From Patellaria atrata CBS 101060 (lineage: Eukaryota), in the NCBI GenBank assembly GCA_010093705.1, contig MU006099.1, positions 434,001 through 498,000 of the forward strand: a stretch of DNA of 64,000 nucleotides. The letters run 5' to 3'. A program made the translations under genes and the position numbers. Shown here one piece after another: positions 3,301-56,110 of this stretch (the first letter of the stretch is position 1; every line of letters starts with the position of its first letter). The notes under the pieces were generated by a model. The model ran no database searches, was not told where the DNA came from, and saw only the letters and a list, made by a program, of their open reading frames with translations.

Positions 3301-5317
3301 CTACACCGTGCCACCGACTGGTGGTGTCATATCTGGTCCTCCAACCCCGGTCATCTCATATAGCAATGTCGGAGGTTTCAACTATACTTCTATAGGAAGT
3401 GAGGGAAGCAGTGTCATATTAGGTACGGGACCCATCACAATTCCACCTATGGCTTCATACAGTAGTTTAGGAGGATCAAACTACACATCATCTGGTAGTG
3501 AAGATGTTATCAGCTTTTCCCCGACGCCCTCAGAAAACGGGACAACAAGAAGTTTCCCGAGAGAGAGTGACTCCCGTGTAGGATCACAAATAACGGAAAT
3601 AGAATCAGACCTAGAGACCCTCACTTCGTCCTCCAACGTCGCTAGCTATGCTCCAACAGCACCTATCACTGACGCCCCGGTTGCCAGTAACAGCATCCCT
3701 CCCTCGTCCTTCAATATAACTAGCTGGGCTCCAACAGCTCCGATCACTGACATTCCTGACGCTAGCAGTGGCATACCTTTGCCGTGGAGCAATTTTACCC
3801 AACCATTACTATCTTCAAGTGGACCACCTTTCCCCCCATTTTCCTATCCCTTCACACTGCCACCCTCTCTAACTCCAACCCCATGGCCTAAATCCAACCA
3901 ATCCTCGATCGGTACAGGTATCCATTCTTCCTCTACTACTCGAAGATTCACGAGTGGTGATCGAGAAGGTTTCCAAACTGAAAGTGCCATATCAACTATG
4001 AATATATCAAGTATTGGTACCGGTACTGCATGGAGCACTGGAACAGCGAATTACACGATGCCGGTCGTGACAGGTAATACCCCCTCAATCACCATACCCA
4101 CAACTTCAAATTCTACTATCTTCGCGCCAACTGGCGATTCAACTTATTCAGGGCCTTCCATGTCTATTCCCTTCGAGTCATCTAATTCGACATTCCCTGC
4201 ACCTACAGGAGAAATAGCCTCATCTACAATTCCAACAGCTTCTTATAATATCGCCATCCCTCCCACCGGAGGTATTCCTTCATTAACTCTAGTACCACCA
4301 ACATATAATATTTCATTTTCAGCACCTACTAGGGAGACACGCTCGTTAACAATTCCGACACCCTCTTCAAATATCACTTTCCCAGCTCCGACAGGGGAAA
4401 CACCTTTGACATTCGTCACACCGTCATACAACATTACCTTACCGGGACCAACAGGTGAAACACCTTCCTTGACAATTCCAATTCCTTCTTACAACGAGAC
4501 ATTCCCAGTCCCAACTGGAGAGACGCCTTCTCTCACAATTTCAACACCCTCATCCAACATCACACTTCCAGCTCCTACGGGTTCGCCCAGCGGAAGTCTC
4601 TGCCCTTGTATCCTCTCTACCCCAACCGTCACCGTTACAGCCATTCAAACGATCTATGCCCCCTGTCCCTCCTGTATCTCGCCCGACTTGCCAGCACCAG
4701 AATCGGGCCTCACGACAGGGGCCGTCCCTCCTCAAATCACCTCCTCTCCGCTCCCGCCGGCCATCTCTCCAATAGCAGTCCCCACTGAGCGCCGCCGCTC
4801 CGGCGAACCCGCAACCCCAGCACAAATTGCAGCCGCATGCACCAACCGCACCACCAACGCCGTCTGGAACGGTGGCTTCGAGATCGTAAACGCGGACGGC
4901 GATCCCGTCGGTTGGACCGCCAGCACAACATCCTCTGCCATATTCTTCACCACATTGCGAACCGGCCCCTACGCAGGCGTCTTCGCCGGGCGCGTTGTCT
5001 CCACGCTTCCTGGGGCTACCATCACGGTTATCCAGGCTCTGACGCTGTGCCCCGGGACGGGGTATGTTTTGAGCGCTGTTGCGAGGCAGGAGAGAGTGTT
5101 GAGTGAGTGTACAGTGGACTTTGCGGTGGGTGGCAGAGGGGTCATGAGTGTGCAGCCAACTACCGGGTGGGGTGCTAGGAGCGAGGGGTTTACGGTGGGG
5201 ACGGATGATCCCGTGACGGTGGATATTGAGGCTGTTGTTAGTTGTGTGGGAAGGCCTGCTGCTGGAGGGACGTTGGTTGTTGATTTTGATGAGATTATGG
5301 TTGTTGCTACCACATAA
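341..5317 (+). CDS. Large secreted Ser/Thr/Pro-rich (mucin/adhesin-like) protein, about 1617 aa, with a PAN/apple-like Cys module and a C-terminal CBM4/9-like carbohydrate-binding domain. Exons 341-606, 673-994, 1052-5317
   Basis: ATG at 341 starts a signal peptide (MRFSRSSLIAASAFILLLPVDA). GT-AG introns 607-672 and 995-1051 have branch sites and join ORFs 308, 683 and 1133 in frame (4854 nt). KR dibasic sites; SAEECLSACTK..CHGITF..CYL motif; C-terminal NGGFE..GW..GPYAG..LCPGTGY domain. Confidence 0.85.
4060..4590 (+). repeat. Intragenic imperfect ~22-aa (~66-bp) tandem repeats (PAPTGETPSLTIPxxSxNITF), about 8 copies
   Basis: Recurring PTG(E)TPSLTI..NITF/L units in the translation, most with an N-x-S/T sequon. 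Confidence 0.8.
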
Positions 5318-18374: not shown

Positions 18375-19873
18375 CTAACTCTTCCTCGGCCCGCGCCCCC
18401 CAAAACCCCACCGAATCTGACTCGGTAAATTAACCTCGACCCCCAACTCCTCCGCCCAGCTCCACACCAAAAACGGATTCTTCAAAAACGCCCTCCCGAC
18501 AACCACAACATCCAACCCCGTACCCTCACTCTCCCGCTCATCCTCTCCGCCCACTTCCCCCCCGACCCCCTTCCCCTCCGCCACACCCCCGGTCCCCGTC
18601 AGTATAGCCTCGGCCTGCGCGCCCGACGTGATGGCCCCGACGGACGCGACGAACATGGTCTTCTCCGAGGGGGAGGAGGCCAGAGCTTTCGCGATGGTGC
18701 GCGCGGGCGGGACTTGGTACCCCGGGCGCGAGTGGACGTGCGCGAGGGGGTGATTACCCCCGGACGAGCAATCCAGCACATCGACGCCCAGGTCCCTGAC
18801 ACGCTGCGCGAGCTCAACGCTCTGAGCGACAGTCCAGCTGTCATTCTTCAGTTCCGACTCCTCGAGCCAGTCCGTGCTGCTGATGCGGAGGAAGAGAGGA
18901 TACGTGTCCGGGACCGAGGACCTCGTTTCCTGAATCAGCTCGCAGAGGAGACGAACGCGGTTGTCGAAACTTCCGCCGTATTGGTCTTGCCGCTTGTTGG
19001 TGGCCGGCGAGAGGAAGGAGTGGAGTAGGTAGCCGTGCGCGGCGTGGATCTCTATGACGTCGAACCCGATATCCAGCGCTCGTTTCACGGCGTCATTGAA
19101 CGCGGTTTTGAACTCGCTTATCTCGTCCGCGCTCATCGCCCGCGGTTGAGCGTGTTTGTCGTTATACGGGACCGCGGAGGGCGCGACGACGTCGTCGGGC
19201 CAGCCGTTTAGCTCTACCCCCGCGACGTCGCCGGAACTGAGCCAGGGCGCGACGGTACTGGCTTTGCGCCCGGCGTGGCCGAGCTGGATGCCGATGTTTT
19301 GGTTTTGGCTGTGCGCGAATTCGACGATGCGTTTGAGGGGCGCCTTTTGGCTGTCTTTCCAGAGGCCGGAGTCTTCAGGGGTGATGCGGCCGCGGGCTTG
19401 GACTGCGGTCGCTTCGACCATCGTGAGGCCGGGTCCGCGCTGGAGGATGCCGCCGAGGTGGGCGAAGTGCCAGGAGGTGTGGTGGCCGTCTTCGGCGGAG
19501 TATTGGCAGAGCGGGGAGAGCTGGGTGAGGGTTAGTTATCTGGATGGGGAGGTATGGATATATATAGGGGTGGGACGGTGAAAGGGGAATGTACCATGAT
19601 GCGGTTTTGCATCGTCATGCCTCTGATCTTGAGCGGCTGGAAGAGTTTGGGGATCTGTTTGTCGTCTTTTCCGGGCTCGAATGCTTTGCCGGCGGGCATC
19701 TCTTGATAGGGGGTAAAGAATGAGACCTAATGCAAGCGATTAGCGGTTTCTTTGAGGATGGTCTTGGTATGTTCTGTACATACTCCTGGAGCGGCTCTAT
19801 TGATGAGCTGATTGTCCGGTTGGGTATCACATTCAAGTGCGTGGTGAGGATGTTCATCTTTTTGGGGAGCCAT
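18375..19873 (-). CDS. NADH:flavin oxidoreductase / Old Yellow Enzyme family (YqjM-like), two introns near the 5' end
   Basis: Spliced N-terminus MAPQKDEH..NRAAPG|VSFFTP..PKLFQPLKIRGMTMQNRIM|LSPLCQYSAEDGH; IQLGHAGRKAS, EIHAAHGYLLHSFLSP, NKRQDQYGGSFDNR and VGRAFL motifs. Confidence 0.95.
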
Positions 19874-20944: not shown

Positions 20945-23020
20945 CTACCAATCCCGTTCTTGCGGTCGCGCACTCTCCGATCTATGCCCGCCGTTTGGAT
21001 ATGCCATGTCCTGTGGAGGAGGTGCCGTGAAGCTCCTCTGCGGCATGGTAACAGCCTCCATTGGATGCCCTGGCAGTGGCGCCGAGACGTCTCTTCTCTG
21101 CCCTGCGGTCACTGGGTTGAAAGCAACATAACCTCCATTCTGAGGGCCCGGCGTATAGTTACGCTGCGGTTGTTGCACCGGTGTCGCGCTCCTGAATGGA
21201 TCGTAGTCGTCGGTGCTTTGGTTGGCGTTGTATGATTGAGAGAGCGGGGATGGGTCGACCGGGCTCATCTTGTATGCAGGGCCGGGAGTTCGCGCTTGAG
21301 ATCGGTAGTCGAATGACGAGGGAGGACTTGTGCTTAGTGGAGAAATACCGGGAGTTTGACCACGGGATAGATTACTAAAGCCGGTGTTGGACCTTGAAGG
21401 AGGACCGTATGGACCAGACATCCCACTCGGTGCGGGAGACCCTCGTCCCTGAGTGCTGAGAGGTGTAGGTCCCCTCTGTGGGAAGTATCCATTATTGAGT
21501 CGTGGTCCTGATGGACCCATAGAGCCCATTGACGGCGCTGGTGAGTTGCGACCAGGTACTGTAGTTCCTGGTCGTGACATTGGAGAATACGGACGTTGTG
21601 GGCCAATGCTGCTGTTGCTAGTCATTGCTCGCGCCATTGGAGCGGGAGCAAAGCTGTCATTGCTATCCGATGAAGGAAGAACAGGGGCTGGGGATGCAGT
21701 GCGATTAGGGTTGCCGTAACCCATATTTCCAGCTTGTGAAAGTAGTGGAGCATTGGAGCCATAGGTCATTGTTGTAGACTGTGTGAGAGACCTGGTAGGC
21801 GGCATCGGTCTAACGTCTGATCCAATGGAGGAATTCGTATCTTGGCGCTGATGCGAACTGCTTGTACCTGGTCTTGAAGCATACGGTGGAAGGGTTGCGA
21901 AGGAATCTTGCCTCGAGAGGGAAAATTGGGAATTGCCATCATCCTCCATAAAAGCAGGAAGTGTTGGTTTCCGGTTGAGCTCGGTAGGCTGTTTACCCCT
22001 CTTAATCGCCCTCTGTTCGTCTCTCACACGTTTGGCTTCCTCTTTATCTAGTGCCTTCCTCATCTTTTTACTAACAATCCTCTCAACTCGAGAGTCGATC
22101 TTTCGTCGGCAGTAAGCTGAGAGTCGACCATCTGAGCTAGGGATGTAATGCCAGAGGAAGAGGATATAAAGAATGCAGGCAATTATAAGACATAATGCCA
22201 ATATAACCCAGATGACGAGAGTGAACAACATGGATGACAAAATCACCGCTTGGGTCTTATTTTCATTATATAGGACTTCAACGTTGAACCAGAACTGGTC
22301 AAATGAATTTCGTCCTTTGTCAGGTTCGGCATGTTCACCCTTTGGCATGAGCTGAGCTTGCATTACAGACCATAATGTCACAGCATTAATGACCATTCTA
22401 GGACCTTCTGCGAAGATGATTCGAAGGGCACCTGTGGATGTTAGTTATTTAGTACAGCTAAATTGAAACGCAATAGTCTTACCCTGAAACTGGAAGTAAA
22501 CAAAAAGAGCAATGTAGTCGACACCCGATTTACTCTTGGTAAGTTCCGTGAAAACGAGAAATCGTCTCCAACCCTGACCTTTTCCCATTCTGATACTCTG
22601 TAGGATGACGGCCAGTTCGTTCAGATAGCTCTCAGCAATACCTCCTCTCTTGATAATTCGAATTGCTCGAAACCAATCGTAACCAGCAAGGATGAAGGAA
22701 AGAATGATGCATCCAGAGAAGATCCACTTAGAAATCTCGAACTTGATGGCCGGATCGACCTGACTTGACCAACGATCAAATGCGAGAAGGTTGATCGCAG
22801 TAAAGGTGTCTGCACCGTAGACCGCAAGTGTTACGATGACGATTCCCCATAACCAGATGTATGAAAAGACTGTAAGGCAGGAAGAGCTTCTAAAATCCGA
22901 AAGGTTCTATTACCATATTAGAAATACGTCTCATTGCGTCAATTGCGAACAGCGTACAATGTAATCCCATTTCGCCTCGTGAGCGACTGCACCCTTTTCT
23001 CTATCTCCAAAGCAACCCAT
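20945..23020 (-). CDS. KCH1: Kch1/Prm6-family potassium transporter / pheromone-regulated membrane protein with a Pro/Ser-rich C-terminal tail; two introns
   Basis: MGCFGDREKG..KWDYI|NLSDF..ADTFTAINLLAFDRWS..KWIFSGCI..GWRRFLVFTELTKS..ALFVYFQF|..FAEGPRMVINAVTLWSV, typical of the fungal KCH family; multiple transmembrane segments. Confidence 0.85.
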
Positions 23021-25364: not shown

Positions 25365-26886
25365 TCAATATGTGCAGTGGCCGCAGTAACCGCATTCTTC
25401 GACCGAGCATGCTGTGAAGTCCTTCTCGAATTCATCGTCCTCTTCCCACTCGCGCTCATCATCATCCTCCCGCTCGCGCTCGGTTCCGGCGTTGAAATCA
25501 TCAAGGTATCTTTCGTACTCAAACTTATCGTTACCGGCAATTTCAAGGACATCACGAACGTCGATCCATCGAGCTCTAACGGAAGGAGAGAGTACATCAT
25601 TGGATGTTCCCCCTTGCTCTCTCAACTCCAATAAGCCTCCTTCTCCTTTCACGATTTCCAATTTCCCGTCTTTTCGTTCGCGCACCGCTGCAATGATTTT
25701 TTTTAGAAGCTCCTTGAGGCGTCTTAAGTGTATCTGATTGTCTTCCTCCCATTGCTCTATCTTGTCACGGACATCGATCTTCTGGATGTCGTTGAAAACA
25801 CCATGAGCATGATAAGCAAGCAAGAAGTTTTGGATCTGTCTAATCCAGAGACGAGGAAGCTCAGGTGAGATGTTATCGTCATTTGCTCTGCGTATAGAAC
25901 GAGTCTTGAGATCGAAAACTGCAGAGTGAGGGATTTGGTGTCCTCCAGCCCTGACTTGAAGAGCATTGCTTTGACTGCTAGACGCCGAATTCTCCGTACG
26001 GGTATTCAATGAGGACTGAAATAGATCTTCGAGCGGAACGTCAGTTCCTGGACTGGACCCTGGCGCACTTGTTGAAAGGTTTTTGGCGTCGGAAACCATA
26101 TCCTTGTAATATCCATCACCTTCAAGCCTTACGATACAACTCAATCCTGAGAAATCATATTGGACAATGCGTTGATGAGAGTCCGATCCTTTGACATCTG
26201 GATCCCACGTTGTGTAAGCTTCAGGAAATGAGTGTCCAAATCCAACAACACCCTGTATCAACTCTTTCGGCGAGTTCTCTCTACGTATGAAGAAAACTGT
26301 GTTTCCTACAGCTTCTACAAGGATTCGGAAAGATTTTTCGGATGTTCCGCTCGCAAAACGAAGGAGATTACCCAGGGTGCTACCGCATGCGAACACGTCT
26401 ACTGAGGCAATGGGAAATTTTGGCTCTGATATAAGGATAGCTTCGACCGCCGGTTCCATTGGGTGTTTGGGATAGCGAGCTGCATTCAGGTCACGGAAAT
26501 AATTCCCAGAGTCTTGCATCAACTTTCTTGACCATCGCAAAGGGGTCCAAAGTGGTGGTTTTCCTAGCAATCCATTAGCATTGTTATCACTCGCGCTAAA
26601 ATAGTCGTATATCTAGGATCGGGAACAACACACCGGGGACGATTATCGAAGCATCGTCTTCATTCATCCAATTGAACGACGCAATATCTCTTGTGCCGGT
26701 GATTTTAGCGTCCTTCGAGAGTTCGTCCGACGTGCCATCTAGGTCAATAGTCCGCAGTGAGCTTATCAATGTACCTAGTGGAGGAGCAGGTGTAGTATTG
26801 ATGTTGGTATTCATATTTGAAGAAACTCTAGAAGAGCGGAACCAAGACTTTTTGTTCGGTCTAAACGCATTGTTGCAGTTGTACAT
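25365..26886 (-). CDS. DXO/Rai1-like PD-(D/E)xK-fold putative nuclease with acidic tail and C-terminal CxxxxCGYCGHC motif. Exons 26634-26886 and 25365-26563
   Basis: Intron 26564-26633 joins SFNW..IIVPG|KPPLW in frame. Ordered motifs VDVFACGSTLGNLL, FGHSFPEAYT, IVRLEGDGY, VFDLKTRS and LPRLWIRQIQNFLLAYH parallel DXO/Rai1 (DxxTWRG..L, GYKFE, GEVDC, ELKT, W.QSFL.G...VVAGFR). The gene model is solid; the fold is inferred. Confidence 0.8.
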
Positions 26887-27670: not shown

Positions 27671-30600
27671 ATGGCATCTGTCCCCTCACAGTCCGAAAGG
27701 TCGGGGAAATTGGCTAAATTTTTCAATCAAATTTTGCAGGGCCAGCGTACCGTTAAGACTTCCCGGGAGTCTAAGCAATTCTTCGAAGCAATATGTGATC
27801 AAAATGATCCTTCAAAGTGCTGTGAAAGGCTCTTTGCAAGTGTCCAAGCTCTGGAATCTCTCCGGGCAGCATTGAGATCGGACACGTCGTCAACCTTCAT
27901 CAATGAATCGATATCAGGTTTCATCCACTACATTTCCGATCCTGCTGTAAAGCAACTCTGCAGTGGCCAGGTATTACAGCGGCTACTACAAGTTCTTTTG
28001 GATCCACCAACCCTATGGATAGCTCTAGTGCAATCTTATACCAACCGGACAATGACGGACAGAACTATGCAGGGATTTTCCTGGATCCTTCTGGAAATTC
28101 TCTTATCTCCAGGACATTTTGATATCGATATTTTAGATATTGCAAAGCGTGTAGTAACAGTCGAACTTGTTCAACCATCGACCACAGAGCTTCGAACTGT
28201 GTTATACAAATTACAACATGTACTTTCATTACAGTCTGTCGCCACTACGGTTAAACTTGAGAATGGCCCTGGTGGTCGTCACGACAATGATTTTGAGGAT
28301 TTCAGGCGAATTGCTATCTATCCAACAGCAGACGAATTCCGTTCCACTGAAACGCCGTTTTATCGCTCTGCCGATATGGTCCAAGAAACCAGTGAAGATG
28401 AACGCGCAGCAGTACATATTGACAACCAATTTCGATTACTAAGAGAGGATATGCTCGCGGAGCTCCGAGATGACCACCAACGAGCTTTGAAGAGCAAGGG
28501 TGCGAGAAGATCAGCCTTCTTCATCCCGAACTTAGCAGGAGCACATTTAATTTATGGAGATCCGAAGCAACAACGTCAAGCAGCAATATCATTTTACTGT
28601 ACAACCGGCCTGGAACAGTTCAAAGGGCTTGACCAGAGTCGTAGGAAATCTTTCCTTACTGAGAATCGGAATTTTCTAAAACACCAGTCATTTGGATGTC
28701 TAATCCAAGGAAGTGACATCATATCTTTCGCCACGGTTGAACGCGATATTGACTCTCTTCTGAAAGACCCTCCAATGATCGTATTACAGGTCTGTGGAGA
28801 CAAGGCGTTCGAGAAGACTTTATCAGCCCTAAAATCTGGCGGATCTCTAAGTTTCCTATCGGTGGATACCCCTTTCTTCGCATATGAACCGGTTTTGAAA
28901 TGCTTGCAGACCAAGCCTACACTGGCTTTGGCCGACGAGTTGATCAATTATAATGCAGAAGCGCCCGTTCACCATAGTAGACTAATCGACAATATCTTCG
29001 TTCAAAAAGTAGGAGAGAGTGTGGGTCGAGATCTTAAACCTTTGCTACAAACTGCAAAGTCCATCAAGCTTGACGAGTCACAAACCGAATCTCTCAAAGC
29101 GGGCCTCAGCCTTCCAGTGAGCCTAATACAAGGGCCGCCAGGTAAGCTATTTCTATCAATCGATAATTGAAAAGGAATTTACTATTCATAGGGACGGGGA
29201 AATCCTTTATCGGGGCATTGCTGGCAAAATCTTTCTATGACCTGACAAAAGAAATTATTCTAGTCGTTTGCTACACTAATCATGCCCTCGACCAATTCCT
29301 AGAGGACTTTTTAGATATTGGGGTACCGGAACATGCAATCGTACGTCTGGGCTCGAAGTCTACACCGAAGACCGCCAATTTGAATTTATTTGGGCAGAAA
29401 AGTACCTATAAACATGGTCGAGCTGATTGGGCGGCCATTGATCAATTGAGAGCTGAAGCTAACGAGCTACGAGTACAGCTAGACAATAAGTTTAATGATT
29501 ACTTGAGACTCCGTTTCGATCATAAAACTCTGATGGATCTATTAGAGTTTTCTGAACATGATGATGTATTTATGGATGCATTGACTACACCAGTTTCTGC
29601 AGATGGAATGGTAAAAGTTGGGCGTAAGGGAAAGACTGTGGGACCAGACTATTTGTTCAACCAATGGTCGAATGGACATGGTCCTGGTGTCTTCGTTAAT
29701 TCTATTTCCCCTACTCATCGAGATGTATGGACTATGACCCCGGAAGCACGAGCAGCAAAAATCAGCAGCTGGAAAGCAAGTCTTGTACAAGAGCGCATAG
29801 ACGTCATTGCATCGCTTTATCGTCGGTACAACACGGTTCAGGCCAAAGCAAGTGAGATATGGAACCAACGCAATGTAGAGATCCTGAAAACGAAACGGAT
29901 TATCGGTTGTACTACAACTGCGGCAGCGAAGTATGCTGAAGACATTCAACATGCATCTCCGGGGATCGTTTTGGTGGAAGAAGCTGGAGAGATTTTGGAG
30001 TCCCACATTTTGACTGCTTTGTCGTCAAAGACAAAGCAGCTGGTATTAATCGGAGATCATAAACAACTGCGCCCGAAAATCAACAATTATGCTCTTACGG
30101 TCGAAAAAGGAGACGGCTTTGATCTTAACCGCTCATTATTTGAAAGGTTGATATTGGCTGGATACCCCCACACAACACTCATGAAGCAACATCGCATGTC
30201 TCCTGAAATTTCATCTCTGATACGACATTTGACATATCCCGATCTTAAAGATGCACCAACGACAATGAATCGGCCTCCGGTGCGTGGTCTCCAGGACAGA
30301 GTTGTCTTTTTCAACCACAATCATCCAGAGGACAATATGGCAAACCTTAACGACCGTCGAGATGAGGGAGCAAAAGTTAGCAAACGAAACCATTTCGAAG
30401 GAAACATGGTTCTCAAGTGCGTACGATACTTAGCACAACAAGGTTATGGGACTGATAAATTGGTCGTTCTGACACCGTATTTGGGACAACTACATCTCTT
30501 GCGTGATTTACTCAGCAAAGAGAATGATCCCGTCCTTAACGATCTCGACTCACATGACTTGATTAAGGCGGGTCTCCTTTCCCAGTCTAGTGCTTATTTG

Positions 30601-33600
30601 ACGAAACGTCCGATAAAAATCTCGACCATAGGTAATTTTGATGCTAAAGGATACAAACAAGTATGCTAACTATTATAGACAATTATCAGGGCGAGGAGAG
30701 TGATATAGTGTTAGTATCACTTACACGTTGTAACGAATCGGGCGATATTGGCTTTATGAAAGCACCAGAAAGACTGAATGTTCTTTTATCCCGCGCACGT
30801 AACGGAATGATACTTCTAGGTAGTGCAGATACATTCATGAAAGCCCATAAAGGCCGAACCCCTTGGGTCTCATTCATACAGTTTATGCGGGAGCACAAGC
30901 ATATGTACGACGGATTACCAGTATTATGCATGCAACATCCGGATAGAAAGTCCATCATTCAATCTACGGAGGACTTTGACCAGAAATGTCCCGACGGCGG
31001 TTGCTTTGAACCATGGTATGTTGTTCTTAAACCTCATTGCTGCTCAATACTGATGTATTTCCTCAAGTGGAACAAAACTCAATTGTGGTCTCCACGACTG
31101 TCCTTCCAAGTGCCATCAACTTGCAGATCATTCAAAAATGAACTGCGAATTCATCGTGGAAACGACTTGCCCGAAGAAACATCGCATTCGCGTCAGATGC
31201 CACATTAAGGATCGGACGTGTCGAAAGTGTGAGCATGAAGAAAGACAAAAAGAGCGTAAAAAACAACGAGACCTTAAACTAGACATGGAACGAGACGCGA
31301 AGCAAGCTGCATACATGCAAAAACTCGCCGAAGTGCAAGACGAAATCGATTTTGAAAGACGTAAGCTGCAAAATAAATCCGAAGAGGAGCAGCGTCAACA
31401 AGCTCTTCATCAGCGCCAAAGAGACCTCGCGGACATAAAGGCTATAACAAAGGACATTGGAGAGATCAAACTGAGTGATGGGTGTCAATTTCCCCAAATG
31501 CCAGATTTACGGGACCCCGTTGAAAATTCCGGAAACTCATCTCAACCTGACCAGCAAACAGCAGACACGAGCTCTGTAGTACAGCCATCATCTTCAACCG
31601 CGTCTAAAGAGTGGCTGTACCAGAAAGAGTTTGAAGGAGCAAGCAATGAGGCTCTGGATGATCTCATGAAAATGATCGGACTGGAAGATGTCAAAGAGAA
31701 GTTCCTATCCATCAAATCCAAGGTTGACACTGCTCTCAGGCAGAACATCAACCTCAAAGATGAACGCTTCGGCGCTGCATTGTTGGGTAACCCAGGGACA
31801 GGTATGCAGAATCAGTCATTCTACTCTCAACCTCTATTAAATTTGTATACTAACATGATAATAGGGAAAACCACTGTTGCACGTTTATATGCAAGGTTCC
31901 TTACCAGTGTGGGTGCTTTGCCAGGAAATTTCTTCGTAGAAACGTCAGGTTCAAAACTTGCGAATGAGGGCGTGTCAGGATGTAAAAAGCACCTTGAAGA
32001 TATTCTGAATAATGGCGGAGGTGCGCTTTTCATAGATGAGGCATATCAACTAGCATCTGGAACAAATTACGGTGGCGCCTCCGTGCTTGATTTTCTCCTG
32101 ACTGAGGTCGAAAATACAACAGGGAAGGTTGTTTTCATTCTCGCTGGCTACAACAAGAATATGGAAGCCTTTTTCGCACACAATCCCGGAATACCCAGCC
32201 GATTTCCGCATGAGCTACAATTCAAGGACTACGAGGATGATGAACTACTACGCATCCTTGCTCATAGCATTGATAAGAAGTATAGTAGCCGGATGAAAAT
32301 CGAAGACGGTATGGGTGGACTATACTCACGTATCGTTGCTCGGCGTATCGGTCGCGGCCATGGGAAAGAAGGTTTCGGTAACGCTCGCGCCGTAGAGAAC
32401 GCTCGTGCGCAGATCGCCGGAAGGCAAGCAAAGAGGCTCCAAGAACAACGTAGAGCGAAAATGCAGGTTGACGACATGTTACTTACCAAAGAAGACCTAC
32501 TTGGGCCTGAGCCCGCTGCAGCGCTCAAGAACTGCCGTGCTTGGAATCAACTCCAACAGCTTATTGGTTTGAAAGCGGTAAAACAGTCTGTACAGGCTTT
32601 ATTCGACAGCATACAATATAACTACTGTCGAGAACTCGAGGAGAAGCCTCTTGTCGAATACTCTCTTAACCGCGTCTTTCTCGGTTCTCCGGGTACCGGC
32701 AAAACCTCCGTTGCGAAGCTGTATGGTCAGATACTAGCTGACATTGGACTTCTCTCGAAAGGTGAGGTTGTAGTCAAGAACCCATCAGACTTTGTTGGCA
32801 GTGTCCTTGGGGAATCGGAGAAAAATACCAAGGGCATTCTAGCTTCCACAATCGGCAAAGTTTTGGTCATAGACGAGGCCTATGGCCTATTCAGCGCACA
32901 GGGCGAGGGCAGAAGTCAACAAGATCCATACAAGACCGCCGTAATTGACACAATTGTCGCTGAGGTCCAGAGCACTCCTGGTGATGATAGATGTGTTCTA
33001 CTGCTTGGTTACAAGGATCAAATGGAGGAGATGTTCCAGAAGGTAAATCCAGGCCTCACCAGACGGTTCCCTCTTGATGCTGCATTCGTCTTTGAAGATT
33101 TCTCAGATGAAGAACTTCGCAAAATCTTCGATCTCAAAATCAAGGGTCAAGGATTCGATGCAACCGATCAAGGGAAAAAGGTCGCCATGGAGATGCTCAA
33201 GCGCGCTCACAACCGACCGCACTTTGGGAATGCGGGTGAGGTTGACATACTGTTGAACGCGGCAAAATCACGCCATCAGCAACGACTATCCACCGGAAAG
33301 ACAAAAAAACAAGCAACATTAGAAGCCCATGATTTTGATGAAGACTTTGATCGCGGACAACGTGCAGAGACTAATATCAAGCTCCTTTTCGAAGGCGTTG
33401 TGGGCTGTGAGGACATTATCGCTCAGCTAGAACGGTATCAACAAACGGGAAAGAATTTGAAGCTGTTAGACATAGATCCACGGGAACAAATCCCCTTCAA
33501 CTTCCTCTTCCGCGGCCCTCCTGGTAAGCCCGTCATCTTCTCTTTGGATAAGGTGTGTGCATACTAAAAACTTCGGTAGGAACGGGTAAAACAACCACTG

Positions 33601-34931
33601 CAAAGAAAATGGGCAAAATTTACTACGACATGGGATTCCTTGCAACTGCAGAAGTCATCGAATGCTCTGCCACAGAACTTGTGGGCCAATATGTGGGATC
33701 AACAGGCCCAAAAACTCAAAAGTTACTCGAAAAGGCTCTTGGAAAAGTTCTCTTCGTGGACGAAGCCTACCGCCTTGCTGAAGGTCAATTTGCGAAAGAA
33801 GCCATGGATGAGATTGTCGACTGTCTCACCAAGCCCAAATTCGCACAGAAGTTGGTCATGATTCTCGCGGGCTATGATGCACAGATCAACCACCTCATGA
33901 CCATAAATCCGGGTCTGACGAGTAGATTTCCTGAGGCAGTGGTGTTCAGACCTTTGCAGCCAGACGAGTGCATTACCTTGCTGGTCGGATTGCTTCGGAA
34001 ACGCAAAACGCACCTGGAGAAAAGTGGAAAGTGTTTGGATATGTCTGTGCTGGAGAAACCAACCGGGTCCTTCAGAAACGACCTACACGCTCATTTTCAG
34101 GCCTTGACTGCGCTGCAGGACTGGGCCAATGCTCGAGACGTACAGACAATCTATAAATCGATATTTAACAAACTCGTGAACAGCGCTACAAGGGTGAAAG
34201 GGGTTCCGACGTTGGCCCTCACAAGCTCCACCGTACTCACCGAAGTCTCTTCCATCCTTTCAGAACGCAGTCACAGGGGCAATAACGCGTCATCCTTTCC
34301 TCCCCCCAATAATTTCAGTCCGCAAGCACAAACAGCTACTCGGACCCTAGACCCTCAACCACTCCCTCCATCGAGCCACGCAACGAGCTTCACCCTGCAA
34401 AACCAACGCAACGACCCTCCCCCGCCACAAGAAACTCCTCAGCAGAACCAACAACCGGAACCCCAGGACCCCCGTGACCACAGCGTCTCAGACGCCAAAT
34501 GGGCACAACTGCAACAAGACAAAGCCGCCGCCTCAGCCCGCGAGCACGACTTCGCCGACCTTCTCGCCAAGGAACGCGACGTCCTCTCCTTCAAAGCTAA
34601 AATCGACGCAGAAGAAGCAGCGGCAGAAGCCGCCGCACAAACGGCCCTCAAACGCGCTTTCGACGAGCGAGCCATCGACGAGGCGAAACGGCGGCATGAG
34701 CAGGAACGTCTCAAATGGCTGAAGATAAGGGAGGTGTATGAGGCGGAGGTCGAGGAGCTGAAGAGGAGGAAGGAGGAGGAGATGCGCAGGAGGGAGAGGG
34801 AGGAGAGAGCCCAGAGACGGTTGAGGGATTTGGGGATTTGTCCGGCGGGGTTTAGGTGGGTTAAGCAGGCGGGGGGGTATAGGTGTTCGGCTGGGGGGCA
34901 TTTTGTTGATGATGCCGCTTTGGGGTTGTAG
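27671..34931 (+). CDS. ZNFX1/Hrr1/SAD-3-like SF1 (Upf1-type) helicase + NF-X1-type Zn finger + coiled coil + three CbbX/SpoVK-type AAA+ modules + C-terminal CPxG..CxxGGH Zn-ribbon-like motif; 2330 aa. Exons 27671-29141, 29192-30631, 30679-31015, 31068-31801, 31865-33523, 33580-34931
   Basis: Five GT-AG introns join five ORFs into 6993 nt in frame. Helicase motifs GGRHDND, IQGPPGTGKS, CYTNHALDQF, VEEAGE, LIGDHKQLRP, SLFERL, QHRM, LTPYLGQ, DNYQGEESD, RLNVLLSRAR. AAA motifs GNPGTGKT/FIDEAY/SRF/GNAR, GSPGTGKT/IDEAY/RRF/GNAG, GPPGTGKT/FVDEAY/SRF/ANAR. Confidence 0.93.
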
Positions 34932-35802: not shown

Positions 35803-36600
35803 CTACTGTGGCTTGACATAGTCAATACCTTCAATACCACGATATGCAGATTTTGTTAACTGGTCATGGATCTCCTGAGCGTAGGCGATGCTTTCCGTAG
35901 TGACTTTGCCTATGAGTTCTAGCTCGCCACCGTAGAATACGTGAACAGATCCGGTCATATGTATTGCAGATGACTCAAAGTTAATCGCCTTCTGAGAGTT
36001 TAACAAGTCATACTCCAGTGCACGGTAATTCGAGATGTTCTTGAAGTCTTTGTTATCAGCCTTCTTGAGCTGCATATATTCGTGCCTGACTTGTTCAGGC
36101 TTGACGTTGAGCCCCCTGTTTGTGAAACTGTAGAAGGGAACGCAGGCCATATGATCAGCAAATTTGGCAATGACCAACATATACCTATATTTGACACAGA
36201 GTGCACCCAAATCGCAGTCTAGCAGCTCCTCATCATCATTCAAGAATGTAGGATCCTGAAGGTTCTTGCAATCAACGGATGGTATTGCGTGTGCAGTGTT
36301 GATGATCATGCCTAACTTGATATTCTCATATCTATAGCCGGATGGCTTTGACCTAGCCACGTAGTAAGATGGTCGACCATTCAGCTCTCTAACACTGGTC
36401 TTAGTTGTGAATACGGATTTACGATCCCGAATATCCAACTTACTTAATGCTTGAGACACATCCTGCGTCTGCACAGTGTCAGGTTTCCTCCAGTTGTTAC
36501 TTGTGCGCATAGCCGCCTGTTTTCTGCTATCCACGTTATTTGGGGGAACCTTCTGCCATGTTGACCTCCCTCCTAGGGTGCTGTATTTAGATTGACTCAT
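35803..36600 (-). CDS. DUF6590-like protein (265 aa) with MazF/PemK-like motifs and a low-complexity N-terminus
   Basis: GMIINTAH..KYRYMLVIAKFADHMACVPFYSFTNRGL..EYMQL..SAIHMT..IGKVTTESI pattern; single-exon ATG ORF. Confidence 0.75.
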   Translation of the reverse strand: MSQSKYSTLGGRSTWQKVPPNNVDSRKQAAMRTSNNWRKPDTVQTQDVSQALSKLDIRDRKSVFTTKTSVRELNGRPSYYVARSKPSGYRYENIKLGMIINTAHAIPSVDCKNLQDPTFLNDDEELLDCDLGALCVKYRYMLVIAKFADHMACVPFYSFTNRGLNVKPEQVRHEYMQLKKADNKDFKNISNYRALEYDLLNSQKAINFESSAIHMTGSVHVFYGGELELIGKVTTESIAYAQEIHDQLTKSAYRGIEGIDYVKPQ

Positions 36601-37071
36601 TCTCCAAGATCGTGGATGGTAGGTGTAAGGTACGTGTTGTGTTTGTGTTGTCGGATTAAGGTAGTGTCCAATATAGAGTTCTAAATCTCAGAATGTACTC
36701 TATGCAGCGTTTGTGGATGAACTGTCTTGGTGTATCTATGGCGCAGGACTGGACAATTATATATTTCTTCTATGTCCATGGAAACCAACTGCATAGTTAA
36801 GCAACAATTCGCAAAATTTGGTCTAGAATAGTAAGTATTGTGCGCCATATAGTCGATATTGGATGTGGTCACGTCACAACGTCTGGCTTTATGGGATCTG
36901 TTACAATGTCGAAACAATGGGAGAACCCTTCTACTGGCTCCAAACGGACTAACAAGCTTTGTTAAAACGAGACGAGAGCATTGTGTTTGACTGGTAAAAC
37001 GGTATTTAAGTTAAGGAATACTTGAAATAAGGAAGGAAAACTTGATACATATAGCTCAACAAAAACTCAAA

Positions 37072-38499
37072 ATGAATCCAACACTCGCAACACTCACAAC
37101 AATGTCGAATATTTTCACTTGGTTTCTGCCACAATGCGTACTCATACGGCATAAAACCAATGGTCATATTCATATTGGCGGAACAGACGATGCGGAAGGG
37201 GACAAGGATAGCGTGCAATTGGGTTGCACCAACGGCGAAACTAGAGTTGTAGCCGTTAAAGATGGATTGAAAGGTTGCGCCGCAGTCTTGATTTCTGTCT
37301 CTTTATCCGAAAAGATTGGGTTAGTGGCACAGTATGATCGGACAGTAGCAAAGTTAAAGGCCAAGATCGAAAAGCTAGATGAACGCCGTACAAAAGTTTC
37401 AAACGAGATCGACGAATATGAACTTCGTAGGATGGAGTTGGTCGTCAAACTCTATCAGGAATTTGATGCTGACCTGAAATGGGAACTCGATGCTATAGAC
37501 CATGATCTAAGGCCCCGGATGCGTTCACATCACGCAATAACCGTAAAGAAAGAAGAATGCACCACGGAGATAGAGAAGATCCAACAAGTACAAGGTGAGC
37601 TTCGGACAGAGATTACAGATATCCTCGGGAAGGTTATGGTCAATCGTCAAGTAATGAAGCCACTTCAACCTGCCTCCTCTGTTGGATCATTAGATCTGGC
37701 CTCGATATGCAGCTCTGAGCGAAGTTCAATCATCTTTAGCCCCGAAGAATCGAATAACCGCGGCGAAGCATCAGAGTCTCCTCAAGATAGGGATGACGAG
37801 AAACTCTCGCCTGAACAAATCGAGAGTGAACAAGCTTCAAAACAGTTCCAAATCGAGACGCTACGCGATCTTAACGAAGCTCGTCACGACACTATCGAAC
37901 TGAGAAAAGCTTTCGAGGAAAAGGAAGAGGAATACAATTCGGAACTTGCGGTTTATGAGAACATGTTAGCTCAAGGAGAAGACGTGCCATCTCGCGAAGA
38001 TTTCGATATATTCTTTTTGCAGAGAAATATGGAGATCACGAGATTGCTAGTGAAAGCAGAAAAAGACCTCGAGGCTGCGAAAGAACGTTATGAAGAAGCA
38101 TGGGGATTTCATCCGGACGCTCGTTACCATCCCAACAATCAGGACGATGGGTGGGACTATCCATTGAGCTTGGAGGAAATAGCAGAGACTATTGTAGACA
38201 GAGCTTCTATCAAGGCTTGGTTGAGCGGCCTGCCTGATATCGAGGTGACCCAAATGGAAGATGCAGACAAGGAGGAAGAAAGCAAATTCGATCAATCTTC
38301 CGACTCATGGGAAGCAAAGAGTGTAGCAATAAGCGATGCTATTAGTGCCCATGCATATGATGAATTCGAACGTAGATGCATTGATCGTTGGATGGCTGTC
38401 AAGACAGCTCAGTTGGAAAAAGCTCCAACTAAGCAGATGCCGGATTGGGAGTATCTCAAGGCAAGGGCGACCGAAGACCTTGAAGTACTTTTCGCATAG
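37072..38499 (+). CDS. Acidic coiled-coil protein of unknown function (~475 aa)
   Basis: Long intact ORF (first ATG at 37072; the track's 37042 start is TTG). Heptad-rich E/K segments; C-terminal WEAKSVAISD..IDRW..PDW motif shared with the pseudogene at 15.1-15.8 kb. Confidence 0.8.
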   Translation: MNPTLATLTTMSNIFTWFLPQCVLIRHKTNGHIHIGGTDDAEGDKDSVQLGCTNGETRVVAVKDGLKGCAAVLISVSLSEKIGLVAQYDRTVAKLKAKIEKLDERRTKVSNEIDEYELRRMELVVKLYQEFDADLKWELDAIDHDLRPRMRSHHAITVKKEECTTEIEKIQQVQGELRTEITDILGKVMVNRQVMKPLQPASSVGSLDLASICSSERSSIIFSPEESNNRGEASESPQDRDDEKLSPEQIESEQASKQFQIETLRDLNEARHDTIELRKAFEEKEEEYNSELAVYENMLAQGEDVPSREDFDIFFLQRNMEITRLLVKAEKDLEAAKERYEEAWGFHPDARYHPNNQDDGWDYPLSLEEIAETIVDRASIKAWLSGLPDIEVTQMEDADKEEESKFDQSSDSWEAKSVAISDAISAHAYDEFERRCIDRWMAVKTAQLEKAPTKQMPDWEYLKARATEDLEVLFA

Positions 38500-41609: not shown

Positions 41610-44600
41610 ATGGCAATGCGTAAGTAATTCCAATATGCATTTTCTAAGCTTGAAATCTGTAAAGCTATATCTAGAGCATATGTCCTTTTCTTCTCAAGCA
41701 AAATGCTAATGTTTACGGTTCACAGAAATTGATATGTCGCAAGGTATGCCTCAAACGCTCCGTTATATCCCATGTTCTCCCCGTTACCCCGTCCCAGGCA
41801 GCTAATATTGGTTCGTACAGCCCAAGTGATGAAGGATGAGTCGGGCAGGCCTTTTATAATAGTTAGAGAGTACGTCTTATATTCAGGGAGCTAGTAACAG
41901 GGCGTTGTATGGGTTAAAAATGTGTGTTGACTATCGGTAGCCAAGGGAAAAAGAAGAGACAGCACGGCAATGAAGCTGTAAAGTCACATATACTGGCAGC
42001 CCGAACAGTCGCAAATATTGTCAAGACGTCGCTTGTAGGAGATTGTATATCAACATGTACGAGCCATATCTGACGGGATTTCTATAGGGACCTAGAGGGC
42101 TTGATAAGATTCTGATTTCGCCCGACGGAGATATCACAGTGACGAACGATGGCGCAACGATCCTTTCACAAGTACGTAAAATGGCGCACTTTGAAGAGAA
42201 TGTTATGCTGATGTTATGAGATAGATGGAAATTTCTAATAACGTTGCGCGACTCCTGGTAGAACTATCCAAATCGCAAGATGAGGAAATAGGGGATGGTA
42301 CAACTGGCGTGGTTGTTCTCGCAGGAGCTCTATTAGAACAAGCTGCAGACCTCATCGACAAGGGTATTCACCCTATCCGTATAGCCGACGGCTATGACCA
42401 AGCATGCGAGGTAGCAGTGGCAGAGTTGGATAAGATTTGTGACACTATCGACTTTTCCAAGGAGCAAACCTCAAACTTGTTCAAAGTCGCAAAGACAAGT
42501 TTAGGAAGCAAAATTGTTTCCAAAGCACATGACCAGTTTGCACAGATTGCTGTAGACGCCGTATTATCCGTCGCTGATCTGGAACGAAAAGATGTGGATT
42601 TCGAACTTATTAAGGTGGACGGCAAGGTTGGTGGATCTCTAGAAGATACCATACTTGTTAAGGGAGTAGTAGTGGATAAGGACTTTTCACATCCTCAGAT
42701 GCCATCAGAGGTTCGGGACGCCAAACTAGCCATTCTCACCTGCGCTTTCGAACCTCCTAAACCAAAGACGAAGCACAAGCTGGACATATCATCCGTAGAG
42801 GAGTATAAGCGGTTACAGAAATACGAGTCCACGAAGTTTACAGAAATGATACAACAAATAAAGGATACGGGTGCTAATGTGGTAATATGCCAATGGGGTT
42901 TCGACGACGAAGCCAATCACCTACTCTTGACAAACGAACTTCCCGCTGTACGTTGGGTAGGTGGCCCGGAGATCGAGCTCATTGCCATTGCCACGAATGG
43001 AAGGATAGTACCCAGGTTTGAAGATCTGAGCGCGGAAAAACTGGGTAAAGCAGGCATTGTCCGAGAGATGTCGTTTGGCACAACGAGAGATAAGATGCTA
43101 GTGATTGAAGAATGCGCAAATACTCGAGCCGTCACAGTCTTTGTCCGCGGAAGCAATAAGATGGTAGGTCGAGATACGAGCTATTGTTTATGCTATCAAT
43201 TGTACCTGAAAAGGAAGAGGCTGACTAACGAAAAACGTGCTAACTCCCACTGTAGATTATCGACGAAGCAAAGCGCTCGCTTCACGACGCACTCTGTGTC
43301 GTTCGAAATCTAGTTCGCGATAATCGGATAGTCTACGGTGGTGGAGCCGCAGAAATAGCTTGCTCATTAGCCGTGGAGGATGCTGCGGTCAAGGCAAGTT
43401 TCCTCTATATCCAGGATCTACATCAACGTGATTATCAGGAGAAAGTTATTTAACATCACGCGTTGAATAGAGCCCAGGTCTCGAACAGTACGCGATGCGT
43501 GCTTTCGCGGACGCACTCGACAGCGTACCCATGGCTTTGGCCGAGAATTCTGGCTTGAGCCCCATCGAAACGCTAGCGTCGATTAAATCTAAGCAAGTCA
43601 AGGAAAAGAATACTAGACTTGGGGTGGATTGTATGCAGACTGGCAGTAATGGTAAGTCGTTAGCTCCTATTTGCTTATTGGTACAAAAGGTAGCGCTGAG
43701 TGATCACTCTGCGTGCTACATCTCTCTAATTCGTCTGCGCTGCCTATTTTCACCTATTTCAATGAATTTTCTATTCCTCCGCCAACACCGCCCTCAGCGC
43801 TGTACCCGCGCTTGCCTTGATTATTTTTTGAGTTTCCTATTCAGCTTTCTTACATGTCTCTTTTTCTTTGTGATGGTTCAGGTGATGCGTTCCTGAGACT
43901 GTAACATATCCCCATTGGCGTCTCATTAGCACACCGCCATCCGCGTGGGAGACATAACCCCCACGCAGCATACGGACATTTTTTCTTTTGTTCATCCCGC
44001 ACCAGTAGGACACCAGTGGCTGCAGTTATGCGAATTCCCCAACTCTATCATTATTCGCTTCTCGTTCCGTTTTGCGATCTTGGAAGATGCACTCCGCATC
44101 AAGCAGAACACATGAACAACTGCGCAGAATACGGCCGCTGATTCGATCGCCCATCACAGATATGCGCGAACATTTCGTCATCGATCCCTTAATCTCTAAA
44201 CGGCAGCAGCTTCTACTAGCAACTCAGTTGTGCCGAATGGTTCTAAAGGTACGTTTGCTTTTCCATTATAGCTCACTATCTCTCCTCCTCCCAACAACCG
44301 TCAAATCTCCGTTCAACGCCTTCCCGTTTCTGTTCCGTTCCCTCTACCCTTTCTCGAGTCAGTAGTATTCCTACACCCGTCTCTCACAGCCGGTTTCTTC
44401 TACCCACCCGGTGGCGTCCAGCCTCGCATGCTCCACAGCACTCGCACCCTCCCTATCCAGATCTTTTTCGTCCCAACTCCCACGTCCTCGCCAGTGGTCA
44501 CACGAAGCACCGTGCCTCGGACCCCTCTTTTCCCGCTTCTCTGGCAATTTTCCCCCCGCGAAACCCCTCACACCTGGTGGTTGGGTCACGTGGGGCCCAA

Positions 44601-54242: not shown

Positions 54243-56110
54243 CTACCACCCCCTCTCGTGATATTCTTGCAGTCCATTGTCGAAATACGCATTGAATGAA
54301 TTAGTGGGTTTTGTTTCCTTTAGAGTGACCATGTGATGACTCTCGCCGGGGTAATTCCTAAGGTTTTTGACATCGTTTGATGTATGCCTACGCTTCAGAA
54401 CGGCACTTGAAGTAGCATTTTTCTGTTGACGTTCCCAAAGGAGGTGCTTCCTTAAAGATTCGGTAAGCTCTGTTGAAAGCATATTTCGTCGGGTGGTGCG
54501 TGGGGAAAGAGCTGGTTGATGAGTATTCGAAGTGGTGATGATGATGGGTCGTGACTGAGAGCGAGGAATATCAGGTTCTTGTTGCGGGTCATGAAATTGC
54601 ACGCTAGGTTCTGCTTTAGGAGATGTAGCGATAGATGGGCCGTTGGGGGAGGAAGTCCGTGAACGCCGCAGTCCATGAGGCTGGCGGGTAGCAGCTTGCT
54701 GGAGCGCTGCGGCACGATCTCCTTCGTGCATCAAGGTCGTTAGGAGGGAGCGTCGTGATGTCAAGTTTGGTCGTGAATCGACTCTTTTAAACATGTTCTT
54801 CTCTTCTAGACTAGAAGGTCCACTCTCCATATCTGAGTCTTCCCAATCATTCTCATCCTCATCGTCTTCAATGGCGCTTTCCGACATCGACTCTTCGTCT
54901 TCGTCGTCAGATTCTAGAGCGCTATCGCTATTGTTCTTATTTTGATTATAGATAGCCCGCGTGACAATTTCGTCTCTGAAAGAGGTCTGCTTGCGGTTAA
55001 AAGTTGGACGTTTGAGGCCTTCAGCAAGGGAGCTACGGTTTGCTAGAGACATATGCGTTTCTAACGAGCTTTCGCCACCTTCGTCTGAGGATGCACCAAT
55101 GATAAAGCCAGGCTTCTTCTTGAATTGTTCGCCCTCTGCTTTGTAGTTATCAGTGTTTTTTAAAATAGTCTTGGGAAGCGCCTGCGTGCCCGAACGGTAT
55201 GACGAGACCGCCTGACCCGGAGAAAATCCAATTGTTACGCTGTGATCAGTCATCTCAGTGGTAGAACTACTGTCCGATGGCACCGGCGGGCTTAAATTCG
55301 ATCCGTCGGTGTATGCTTCGGTGGCAACTGTAGATGTAGATGAATCCGGAGGTAAATTAGAAGGCATCTGATCACGTTGAGTCGTTGATTCTGCAATGGA
55401 TTGCATGGTTTGTCGGGACGGCTGTGACGGTTTCACGGCTGGTTTCTGCATTGTAGCGATTGAGCAAGAACGAGGTAATGGAAGAGGCGACAACGGCTCC
55501 AACTCTTTCTTTTCCTTTATCGAAGTAACAATCTTTTCTAAGTCTACGGGTGTAATGTGTTTCTCGAATCCTCTACTGCGGCTTTCTGAAGAGTCAAGTC
55601 GTCGCAATTCAGGTCTAATGGGGGATGAGAGCGCCTGCGGTGTTTGGGCAGGTGCGTCCGAGTCAAGAGATTCCACGCTTGAGGATAATTCTGGTGCTTC
55701 CTCGGAGGAGCGCGATTGATTTAATGATGACGGTCCGTGAAGGCGTTTTGAGGAAGATGAGGAGGAAGGTAAGCTTCGGTTTAAGGACCATCGCTCTTTG
55801 AAGTTCGGCTTTTGATCAGGCGCACAACAAAATGTCTCACGGTTCCAAAGCCGCCAAGAGAAATTCTCTAGTCTTTTGCCGTCTTCCATCGTAGTTGAGC
55901 ACTTGGAGAATACTGTAGTTAAAAATGAAAGGATTAGCTGAAAGGCTAATTGCACGAGGTTTTTTTTTGGCCCTCAGATGCTATCATCCAGCGACCAAAA
56001 TTCGACTTACCAGACCAGAGCATGAATAGATTCACGACGTTCGTTGTGTCAATCGTGTGCATCGATGCGGGCTCCACCCTCACGATAGGTCTTTCCGAAC
56101 CGAAAGGCAT
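54243..56110 (-). CDS. DUF1752 (AreA N-terminal-like) / DUF3295 domain regulator. Exons 56011-56110 and 54243-55912
   Basis: NLFMLWS|VFSKC..DGKRLENFSWRLWNRE (DUF1752 signature); ESAIEDD..WED, SRRSLLT, SPRTTRRNMLSTELTESLRKHLLWER and terminal YHERGW (DUF3295). Confidence 0.9.

Follow-up and report, generated by a model that had tools for sequence, protein, structure and literature searches.

The window analysed here is a 64,000-nucleotide stretch of contig MU006099.1 of Patellaria atrata CBS 101060 (assembly GCA_010093705.1, positions 434,001 to 498,000). At 27671-34931 on its forward strand lies a single gene of six coding exons, whose 2330-residue product is predicted to join a superfamily 1 (SF1) helicase of the ZNFX1 type to three AAA+ ATPase modules and a small Cys/Cys/His tail. 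When candidate splice sites around the five frame breaks are combined, just one set leaves the frame open from 27671 to 34931. It removes five GT-AG introns of 47-63 nucleotides (29142-29191, 30632-30678, 31016-31067, 31802-31864 and 33524-33579), and the spliced product is letter for letter the NCBI protein of this strain, named P-loop NTPase there (P0001 in our set). The gene is real and already annotated in the database, and we located no functional study of it. The fusion of four NTPases in one protein, proposed in an earlier note made from the letters without database searches, is therefore borne out, and is also widespread: from 6289 relatives among 8000 scored candidates, the best 120 were used for architecture counts, and 108 of these hold helicase and AAA modules in one record, 100 of them all parts. 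This annotation and conservation point to a single transcript for the two halves; two sequencing runs, X1 and X2, retain all the introns, are probably DNA (possibly that of the window itself) and are silent on expression. All four Walker A motifs (residues 488, 1323, 1601 and 1878) and all Walker B motifs (EEAGE at 753; DEAY at 1385, 1664 and 1941) are intact after splicing, as the earlier note had stated. The parts of the gene and its product are as follows.

27671-29141, 29192-30631, 30679-31015, 31068-31801, 31865-33523 and 33580-34931 (+): exons of the helicase/AAA gene
27671..28255 (+): N-terminal domain, residues 1-195, 35% mean identity in the family, at the position of the ZNFX1 armadillo domain
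28256..29050 (+): PGGRHDNDF / LLREDM region and 1B-type insertion, residues 196-460, aligned to human ZNFX1
29066..30857 (+): SF1 (Upf1-like, ZNFX1-clade) helicase core with 1C-type insertion, residues 466-1030, Pfam AAA_11/AAA_12
30927..31230 (+): short NFX1-type zinc-finger stalk, residues 1054-1137, 17 conserved Cys/His over 84 residues
31231..31584 (+): helical stretch rich in charged residues, by sequence a probable coiled coil, then a low-complexity linker, residues 1138-1255
31621..32502 (+): AAA1, residues 1268-1540, with Walker A/B, sensor-1 GY, Arg finger and sensor-2 Arg, no aromatic pore loop
32518..33336 (+): AAA2, residues 1546-1818, with Walker A/B, GY, double Arg (RR), sensor-2 Arg changed to Gly, aliphatic pore loop
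33349..34274 (+): AAA3, residues 1823-2112, full motif set with CbbX-like aromatic pore loop QYVG
34275..34463 (+): Pro/Gln-rich disordered linker, residues 2113-2175, 16% family identity, low predicted local distance difference test score (pLDDT) in a homologue model
34473..34832 (+): RDxGVxDxxWxxL motif (residues 2179-2191) and long two-helix coiled region, conserved
34833..34928 (+): terminal Cys/Cys/His domain, residues 2299-2330, modelled as three short strands followed by a helix, with a probable zinc site

The helicase Walker A, GPPGTGKS, is split by intron 1 (29142-29191), and introns 31802-31864 and 33524-33579 likewise interrupt the Walker A of AAA1 and AAA3. Among 119 short database matches, 80 resemble pieces running from AAA3 to the end, which suggests that the position of the last intron is widely kept. 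Two unusual records may be assembly artefacts: P0183, in which the tail region follows helicase motifs and little of the AAA cassette is left, and P0121, with two tails within 173 residues.

The best match of the protein among PDB sequences is human ZNFX1 (9q9z, E 6e-88), ahead of Upf1 (3.5e-29) and Aquarius (3.5e-27), and it also takes in the region ahead of the helicase and the first zinc fingers. ZNFX1 is likewise the best PDB match of a chytrid homologue (E 9e-48), and the helicase motifs are near-invariant across 79-82 aligned rows. By PDB match scores, rather than by a helicase tree, the front half is classed as a ZNFX1-clade SF1 helicase with 1B and 1C insertions, in agreement with the ZNFX1 link drawn in the earlier note. 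A search of residues 1-210 against PDB sequences for the armadillo dimerisation domain of ZNFX1 gave no match; a conserved acidic stretch at residues 606-620 is a possible counterpart of the acidic plug helix in insertion 1C of ZNFX1 (828-836). Similar to human ZNFX1, the fungal protein has the helicase core, the upstream region, the start of the zinc-finger stalk and a small C-terminal Cys/His module. In contrast with the human protein, however, the stalk spans only ~85 residues, and the C-terminal Miz and RZ E3 ubiquitin-ligase module of ZNFX1 is missing; the stalk leads instead into three AAA+ modules and a coiled-coil arm that ends in a tail of another type. A Miz/RING-like Cys-His pattern is absent from residues 1138-1255, and an RZ pattern, which had no positive control, found no match in P0001-P0357.

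The Walker A Lys, the Walker B DE, the sensor-1 GY and the Arg finger show no variation in any of the three AAA modules (87-88 rows), and GY, which marks the SpoVK-EccA-CbbX clade, stands at 100% in each. Upstream of the finger an Asn is kept in the same register as in CbbX, NxGxx(S/R)R; we count six residues from this Asn to the invariant Arg, whereas the accessible text of PMC11513918 gives four. The sensor-2 Arg is present in AAA1 and AAA3 and is Gly in AAA2, and the aromatic pore loop of CbbX is confined to AAA3, a module-specific pattern that recurs from fungi to oomycetes and Hydra in most eukaryotic rows examined. The modules follow one another at 277-278 residues. AAA1, AAA2 and AAA3 are all assigned to the SpoVK-EccA-CbbX clade (CbbX 3syk, EccA1 9lur), with which they share the fold, the GY sensor-1, the finger motif and, in AAA3, the pore loop. 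They differ from its known members in that each chain carries three specialised tandem modules, in falling below the NCBIfam equivalog cut-offs for CbbX, SpoVK and EccA proper (228/459, 252/423 and 216/467 bits, exon 5), and in their position in the tree. The AAA half of a homologue, P0009, was modelled from a 38-row alignment (predicted template modelling score, pTM, 0.54), and its resemblance to CbbX (Z 24.7) fits the CbbX/SpoVK/EccA identification given in the earlier note. Adjacent modules of this model align to both tiers of p97/Cdc48, NSF and NVL over 416-476 residues, and these are its top Foldseek matches.

The AAA tree was a quick, unrooted one of 162 modules picked by motif, with some missed. 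In it the AAA1 modules of eukaryotes group as one clade and the AAA2 modules as another (Shimodaira-Hasegawa-like approximate likelihood-ratio test, SH-aLRT, 99 for each), AAA3 forms a third with one myxobacterial row inside (SH-aLRT 93), and where a fourth or fifth module exists it is mostly a duplicate of AAA3 specific to its lineage. CbbX and EccA lie apart from the eukaryotic modules, the nearest bacterial rows being those of a Myxococcales locus (L015). Plastid CbbX as the AAA donor finds no support in this tree, and we claim no donor. The tree and the homologue search also reveal a broad eukaryotic branch of the clade, so that the earlier description of such AAA modules as mostly bacterial or plastid-associated does not hold. 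The sections of PMC11513918 available to us report eukaryotic members with an SF1 helicase N-terminus, describe the characterised members as dedicated chaperones and offer RNA processing as a guess for function. Fig. 3A of that paper may show exactly the present architecture, zinc domain included.

The terminal motif had been written as CPxG..CxxGGH and taken for an RZ ubiquitin-ligase finger. It is conserved among homologues, a profile having picked out 340 tails from 367 proteins, with the consensus C-x3-[FY]-x-W-x8-C-x4-[H/C]. The first Cys is present in 339 of the 340, the Trp in 338, the second Cys in 334 and the His in 331 (C2301, W2307, C2316 and H2321 in the Patellaria protein). The Cys/Cys/His core of the proposed motif thus stands, whereas the Pro of CPxG, found in 257 of 340, is not fixed. 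An RZ finger requires C-x3-H-x6-C(catalytic)-x8-C-x2-C-x8-H (bioRxiv 10.1101/2025.10.14.682297, in the portion available), and its Cys/His dyad is confirmed in the accessible part of PMC12075652. In contrast, the position of the RZ zinc His is Phe in 187 tails, Tyr in 152, Cys in 1 and never His, and none of the 340 has the CxxC, so the identification as an RZ finger had to be given up. Counted from the first Cys, the second Cys and the His of the tail lie at +15 and +20, against +11 and +32 for the catalytic Cys and the His of RZ; the Pfam RZ-type family matched none of 14 tails. Cys takes the place of the tail His in 3 of 340, from two separate lineages (P0018; P0302/P0367), an exchange that suits a metal ligand and not a general base.

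In the tail model (pLDDT 85) three short strands lie between two helices; an RZ finger is a beta-sandwich with a helix ahead of it. Compared with known structures, the model found nothing significant (best Z 4.4, best E 5.6). The weak Foldseek rows include proteins that we take to be of zinc-ribbon type. The tail had 0 matches among PDB sequences and nothing in the ESM Atlas, where P0009 retrieved AAA clusters only. Of 321 tails, 285 have the RDxGV..W motif 42-167 residues ahead of them, and where the helix break is distinct (66 cases) it falls at 0.42 of the spacer, as expected of a hairpin; the two-helix coiled region is thus probably an antiparallel hairpin. The aspartate of RD was considered as a universal fourth zinc ligand and dropped, as RNF213-like carriers and several others are without the motif. 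A complex prediction for the RDxGV helix, the tail and zinc, in which no alignments were used, was uninformative (score 0.01). The tail is, we consider, a probable zinc module to which the Cys/Cys/His core lends three ligands, and not an RZ finger.

A search with a divergent homologue brought in 117 further long proteins. A close ZNFX1-type helicase was found in 34 of them (32 with the tail) and a more distant one in 64 (53 with the tail), and in 19 no helicase was detected (12 with the tail). Three is the commonest number of AAA modules, although four-module (19) and five-module (5) forms occur among the 64 proteins with a distant helicase. The sources include oomycetes, chytrids, basidiomycetes, a dinoflagellate, Chromera, a diatom, plasmodiophorids, Bigelowiella, Diplonema, Hydra and Clytia, and the family is present in Neurospora and Aspergillus. 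With three to five modules, the AAA-plus-tail cassette is pan-eukaryotic in its spread, being found in fungi, oomycetes, algae, protists and cnidarians. One five-module member, P0245, comes from a record assigned to the beetle Zophobas morio, and fragments that match it are present in Joint Genome Institute records; it may be a host gene or belong to a co-sequenced protist. In four proteins (P0254, P0263, P0267 and P0321) the tandem CbbX-like modules number six to nine and the tail is missing; these group with bacterial rows.

The cassette also occurs behind other N-termini. In P0286 and P0299 an RNF213-like core (E 4e-54 and 5e-50) stands ahead of it, P0360 and P0458 are related proteins, and in P0281 it accompanies ankyrins. 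Among 150 representatives of the RNF213-like set, however, the cassette was found in only 1 of the 55 proteins of at least 3000 residues, and the RZ pattern in none; a general replacement of RZ on RNF213-like proteins was therefore rejected in favour of one output among many. The same set (P0456-P0605) includes many RNF213-like giants, several with VWA domains, whose C-termini are very varied, none with the RZ pattern. Similar to RNF213, the window protein is a giant multi-ATPase protein, and RNF213-like proteins that end in the fungal cassette exist; unlike RNF213, its AAA modules are of the CbbX clade and not a dynein-like six-module core, and it has no RZ. RNF213 does not figure among the 60 PDB matches listed, of 70, for the protein. 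Of the ZNFX1/RNF213 hybrid imagined in the earlier note, the link to ZNFX1 and the presence of the cassette at the end of several RNF213-like proteins remain, while the AAA part is no dynein-like ring and the RZ finger is missing.

The 80 loci from a prokaryote collection (L001-L080) encode tandem AAA proteins with one to four CbbX-like modules, L015 being the nearest bacterial branch. These differ from the fungal protein in having neither a ZNFX1-type helicase nor a C/C/H tail, and in N-termini such as Hsp70; their fusions are varied (Hsp70, trypsin, beta-helix). Bacterial Hsp70 is fused to three CbbX-like modules at L077:2898-7859 and L002:1851-6809. The Myxococcales protein at L015:2062-6231 begins with what resembles a signal peptide, carries three CbbX-like modules and one more P-loop, and ends in CxxCGxxxC. 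This motif also ends L003, P0273 and P0341; its presence on a myxobacterial relative and on P0273/P0341 suggests that there is a need for a small zinc module. Single-protein patterns found no relative in viral contigs. Tandem SpoVK ATPases adjoin bacterial CoCoNuT systems, according to the part of PMC11090510 available.

The helicase/AAA gene has a divergent neighbour, not mentioned in the earlier note, whose start codon lies 785 bp from its own.

25365..26886 (-): head-to-head partner gene, 483 residues, exons 26886-26634 and 26563-25365

A partner homologue lies head-to-head in 47 of 80 related metagenome loci, some of which are duplicates, with the matches 421-1232 nucleotides apart, and in 39 of the 57 loci that have at least 2.5 kb upstream; four other neighbours from the window occur in 0 of the 80. 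The partner has the invariant motifs GxGHxF, RxExDG, DLKTR and WxxQ, which we take to resemble the DXO/Rai1 catalytic motifs GxxFE, ExD, (E/D)xK and WxxQ. It ends in a CxxxxCGYCGHC Cys/His motif after an acidic stretch (window 25365-25420). A PIWI motif was found in 6 of 167 loci, all six among the 80 fungal ones, and Pfam confirmed a Piwi domain in at least 5 of these 80, two of them near-identical; at one such locus a full Argonaute stands tail-to-tail with the helicase/AAA gene. A few Argonautes are expected per 35 Mb. Against this rough expectation, ~1 Mb having been examined, the Piwi count would be an enrichment. Flanking genes were scanned with Pfam at 3 loci. PIWI and RNA-dependent RNA polymerase (RdRP) motif matches in L121 and L156 have stop codons in the test window and were set aside as unconfirmed.

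The domain order, the intact catalytic motifs, the division of labour among the AAA modules and the linked partner gene are direct observations. We propose, as a plausible reading that we place a little short of probable, that the protein is a remodelling motor of stacked rings that engages RNA and serves in fungal silencing or antiviral RNA surveillance, with the AAA+ cassette in place of the E3 module of ZNFX1. The helicase would load on and move along single-stranded RNA, as ZNFX1 does, and six chains would stack their AAA1, AAA2 and AAA3 modules into the three tiers of a ring in the style of p97 and NSF, one module type per tier. AAA3, the candidate polypeptide gripper and the sole module with an aromatic pore loop, would strip or remodel proteins on the RNA, while the tiers of AAA1 and AAA2 would serve assembly and regulation. 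The zinc tail, carried on the coiled-coil arm, would dock a client or partner and would not be catalytic, and the co-located DXO-like protein would process the ends of the RNA so exposed. The proposed stacking is shared with p97/Cdc48, NSF and NVL; these belong to another AAA clade, however, and the present family would differ from them in its three to five tiers and its covalently linked helicase. It is the conserved partner together with the Piwi neighbours that points to a role in RNA surveillance or silencing.

It should be emphasized, however, that several observations weigh against this proposal. Our search turned up no activity, expression or phenotype for a member of the family, and the high conservation (60-72% identity in the AAA modules) is unlike that of a fast-evolving immune receptor. 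The two-tier alignments are loose (root-mean-square deviation 7.5-14.6 A, from a model of pTM 0.54, with chains of more than 3000 residues left out). The cassettes without a detected helicase, 12 of 19 bearing the tail, indicate that RNA is not the only input of the cassette. The partner is absent in 18 of the 57 loci with at least 2.5 kb upstream, loci that are partly duplicates, and sequence and profile searches of Pfam and PDB gave it no match, the putative DXO assignment coming from motif resemblance. Finally, the neighbourhood loci contained no Dicer motif, and their one RdRP-like match is unconfirmed.

It could be argued that the protein is instead a sensor-executor of cell-autonomous immunity outside RNA interference, in which foreign RNA, or another cue in the RNF213-like and ankyrin versions, assembles the cassette and the unfolding of an essential target, or a drain on ATP, arrests or kills the compartment. 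Such a role would fit a cassette that follows two sensor types known as immune proteins in animals, whose module number and N-termini vary and whose bacterial tandem relatives show such diverse fusions. The helicase also matches the profile of the anti-phage protein MkoA (E 9e-68), although this may reflect general Upf1-like similarity. As a known toxic domain was not detected, the family is strongly conserved, and the Argonaute and DXO-like neighbours point toward RNA processing, we consider this explanation unlikely, if a serious one. DXO enzymes serve in mRNA cap quality control, and together with the high conservation across filamentous ascomycetes, the Upf1/Aquarius-like helicase and the p97-like geometry they lend some weight to housekeeping ribonucleoprotein quality control unrelated to defence, dealing for example with stalled ribosomes or aberrant uncapped transcripts. 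The RNA-processing guess of PMC11513918 leans the same way. This account is nonetheless distinctly unlikely, given the Argonaute neighbours, the variable architecture and module number, and the action of ZNFX1 orthologues in immunity (bioRxiv 10.1101/2025.10.14.682297, available portion).

With regard to geometry, two chains of three modules might close one six-membered ring side by side, each chain resembling half an RNF213 or dynein. The predominance of three modules and their specialisation would suit this arrangement, which we nevertheless judge improbable: the natural four- and five-module forms fit stacked tiers and not a single six-membered ring, and the model is similar to two-tier AAA proteins. 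Lastly, that the tail is a reduced RZ-type transthiolating E3, with the second Cys and the His forming a catalytic pair that RNA and ATP would activate, is very improbable, since its terminal position as in ZNFX1, the helix ahead of it, the invariant Cys and near-invariant His and its occurrence on RNF213-like proteins are outweighed by the loss of the zinc His and of CxxC, a Cys-His spacing of 5 instead of 21, the two lineages with Cys for His, the lack of a Miz/RING partner and of Pfam RZ-type matches, and the different Cys motif that the myxobacterial relative has in common with P0273 and P0341.

If the remodelling-motor reading is right, the family keeps the ZNFX1 sensor with its output swapped for a multi-tier AAA+ motor, and a like swap would have occurred on RNF213-like proteins. 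ZNFX1 and RNF213 act through ubiquitin in animals. A broader view, possible but on balance doubtful, is that the AAA-plus-tail cassette is an ancient, portable eukaryotic effector that replaces the ubiquitin-ligase module on ZNFX1- and RNF213-type sensors, providing ubiquitin-independent cell-autonomous defence through a three- to five-tier motor and, in fungi, cooperating with Argonaute and a DXO-like nuclease to counter viral or selfish RNA. Tractable fungi and a tightly linked partner offer a way into the role of ZNFX1-type helicases outside animals, and the family bears on the existence of AAA+ motors with more than two tiers and on a zinc module not previously described. As far as the accessible text goes, the architecture has already been mentioned in passing in print (PMC11513918), and the family is otherwise uncharacterised. 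Our literature search, which most subscription papers lay outside, found no functional study of it, and the available parts of PMC7648066, PMC12511879, PMC7379330 and PMC6315951, two of which are mycovirus transcriptome papers, contain no link to the family. For one N. crassa helicase induced by virus, NCU04472 (in the portion of PMC7648066 available), membership of the family was considered and not established, no primer appearing in the 26 of 38 quantitative polymerase chain reaction passages viewed.

Downstream of the helicase/AAA gene, two open reading frames, at 35803-36687 (-) with a weak DUF6590 match and at 37015-38499 (+) with a coiled coil, stand beside homologues in 0 of the 80 loci. 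The remaining genes noted in the window are listed below.

1052-5317: long PAN-domain open reading frame
18375-19535: flavin oxidoreductase
20945-22444: fungal potassium channel
42225-43313: TCP-1 chaperonin
54243-55973: DUF3295 protein

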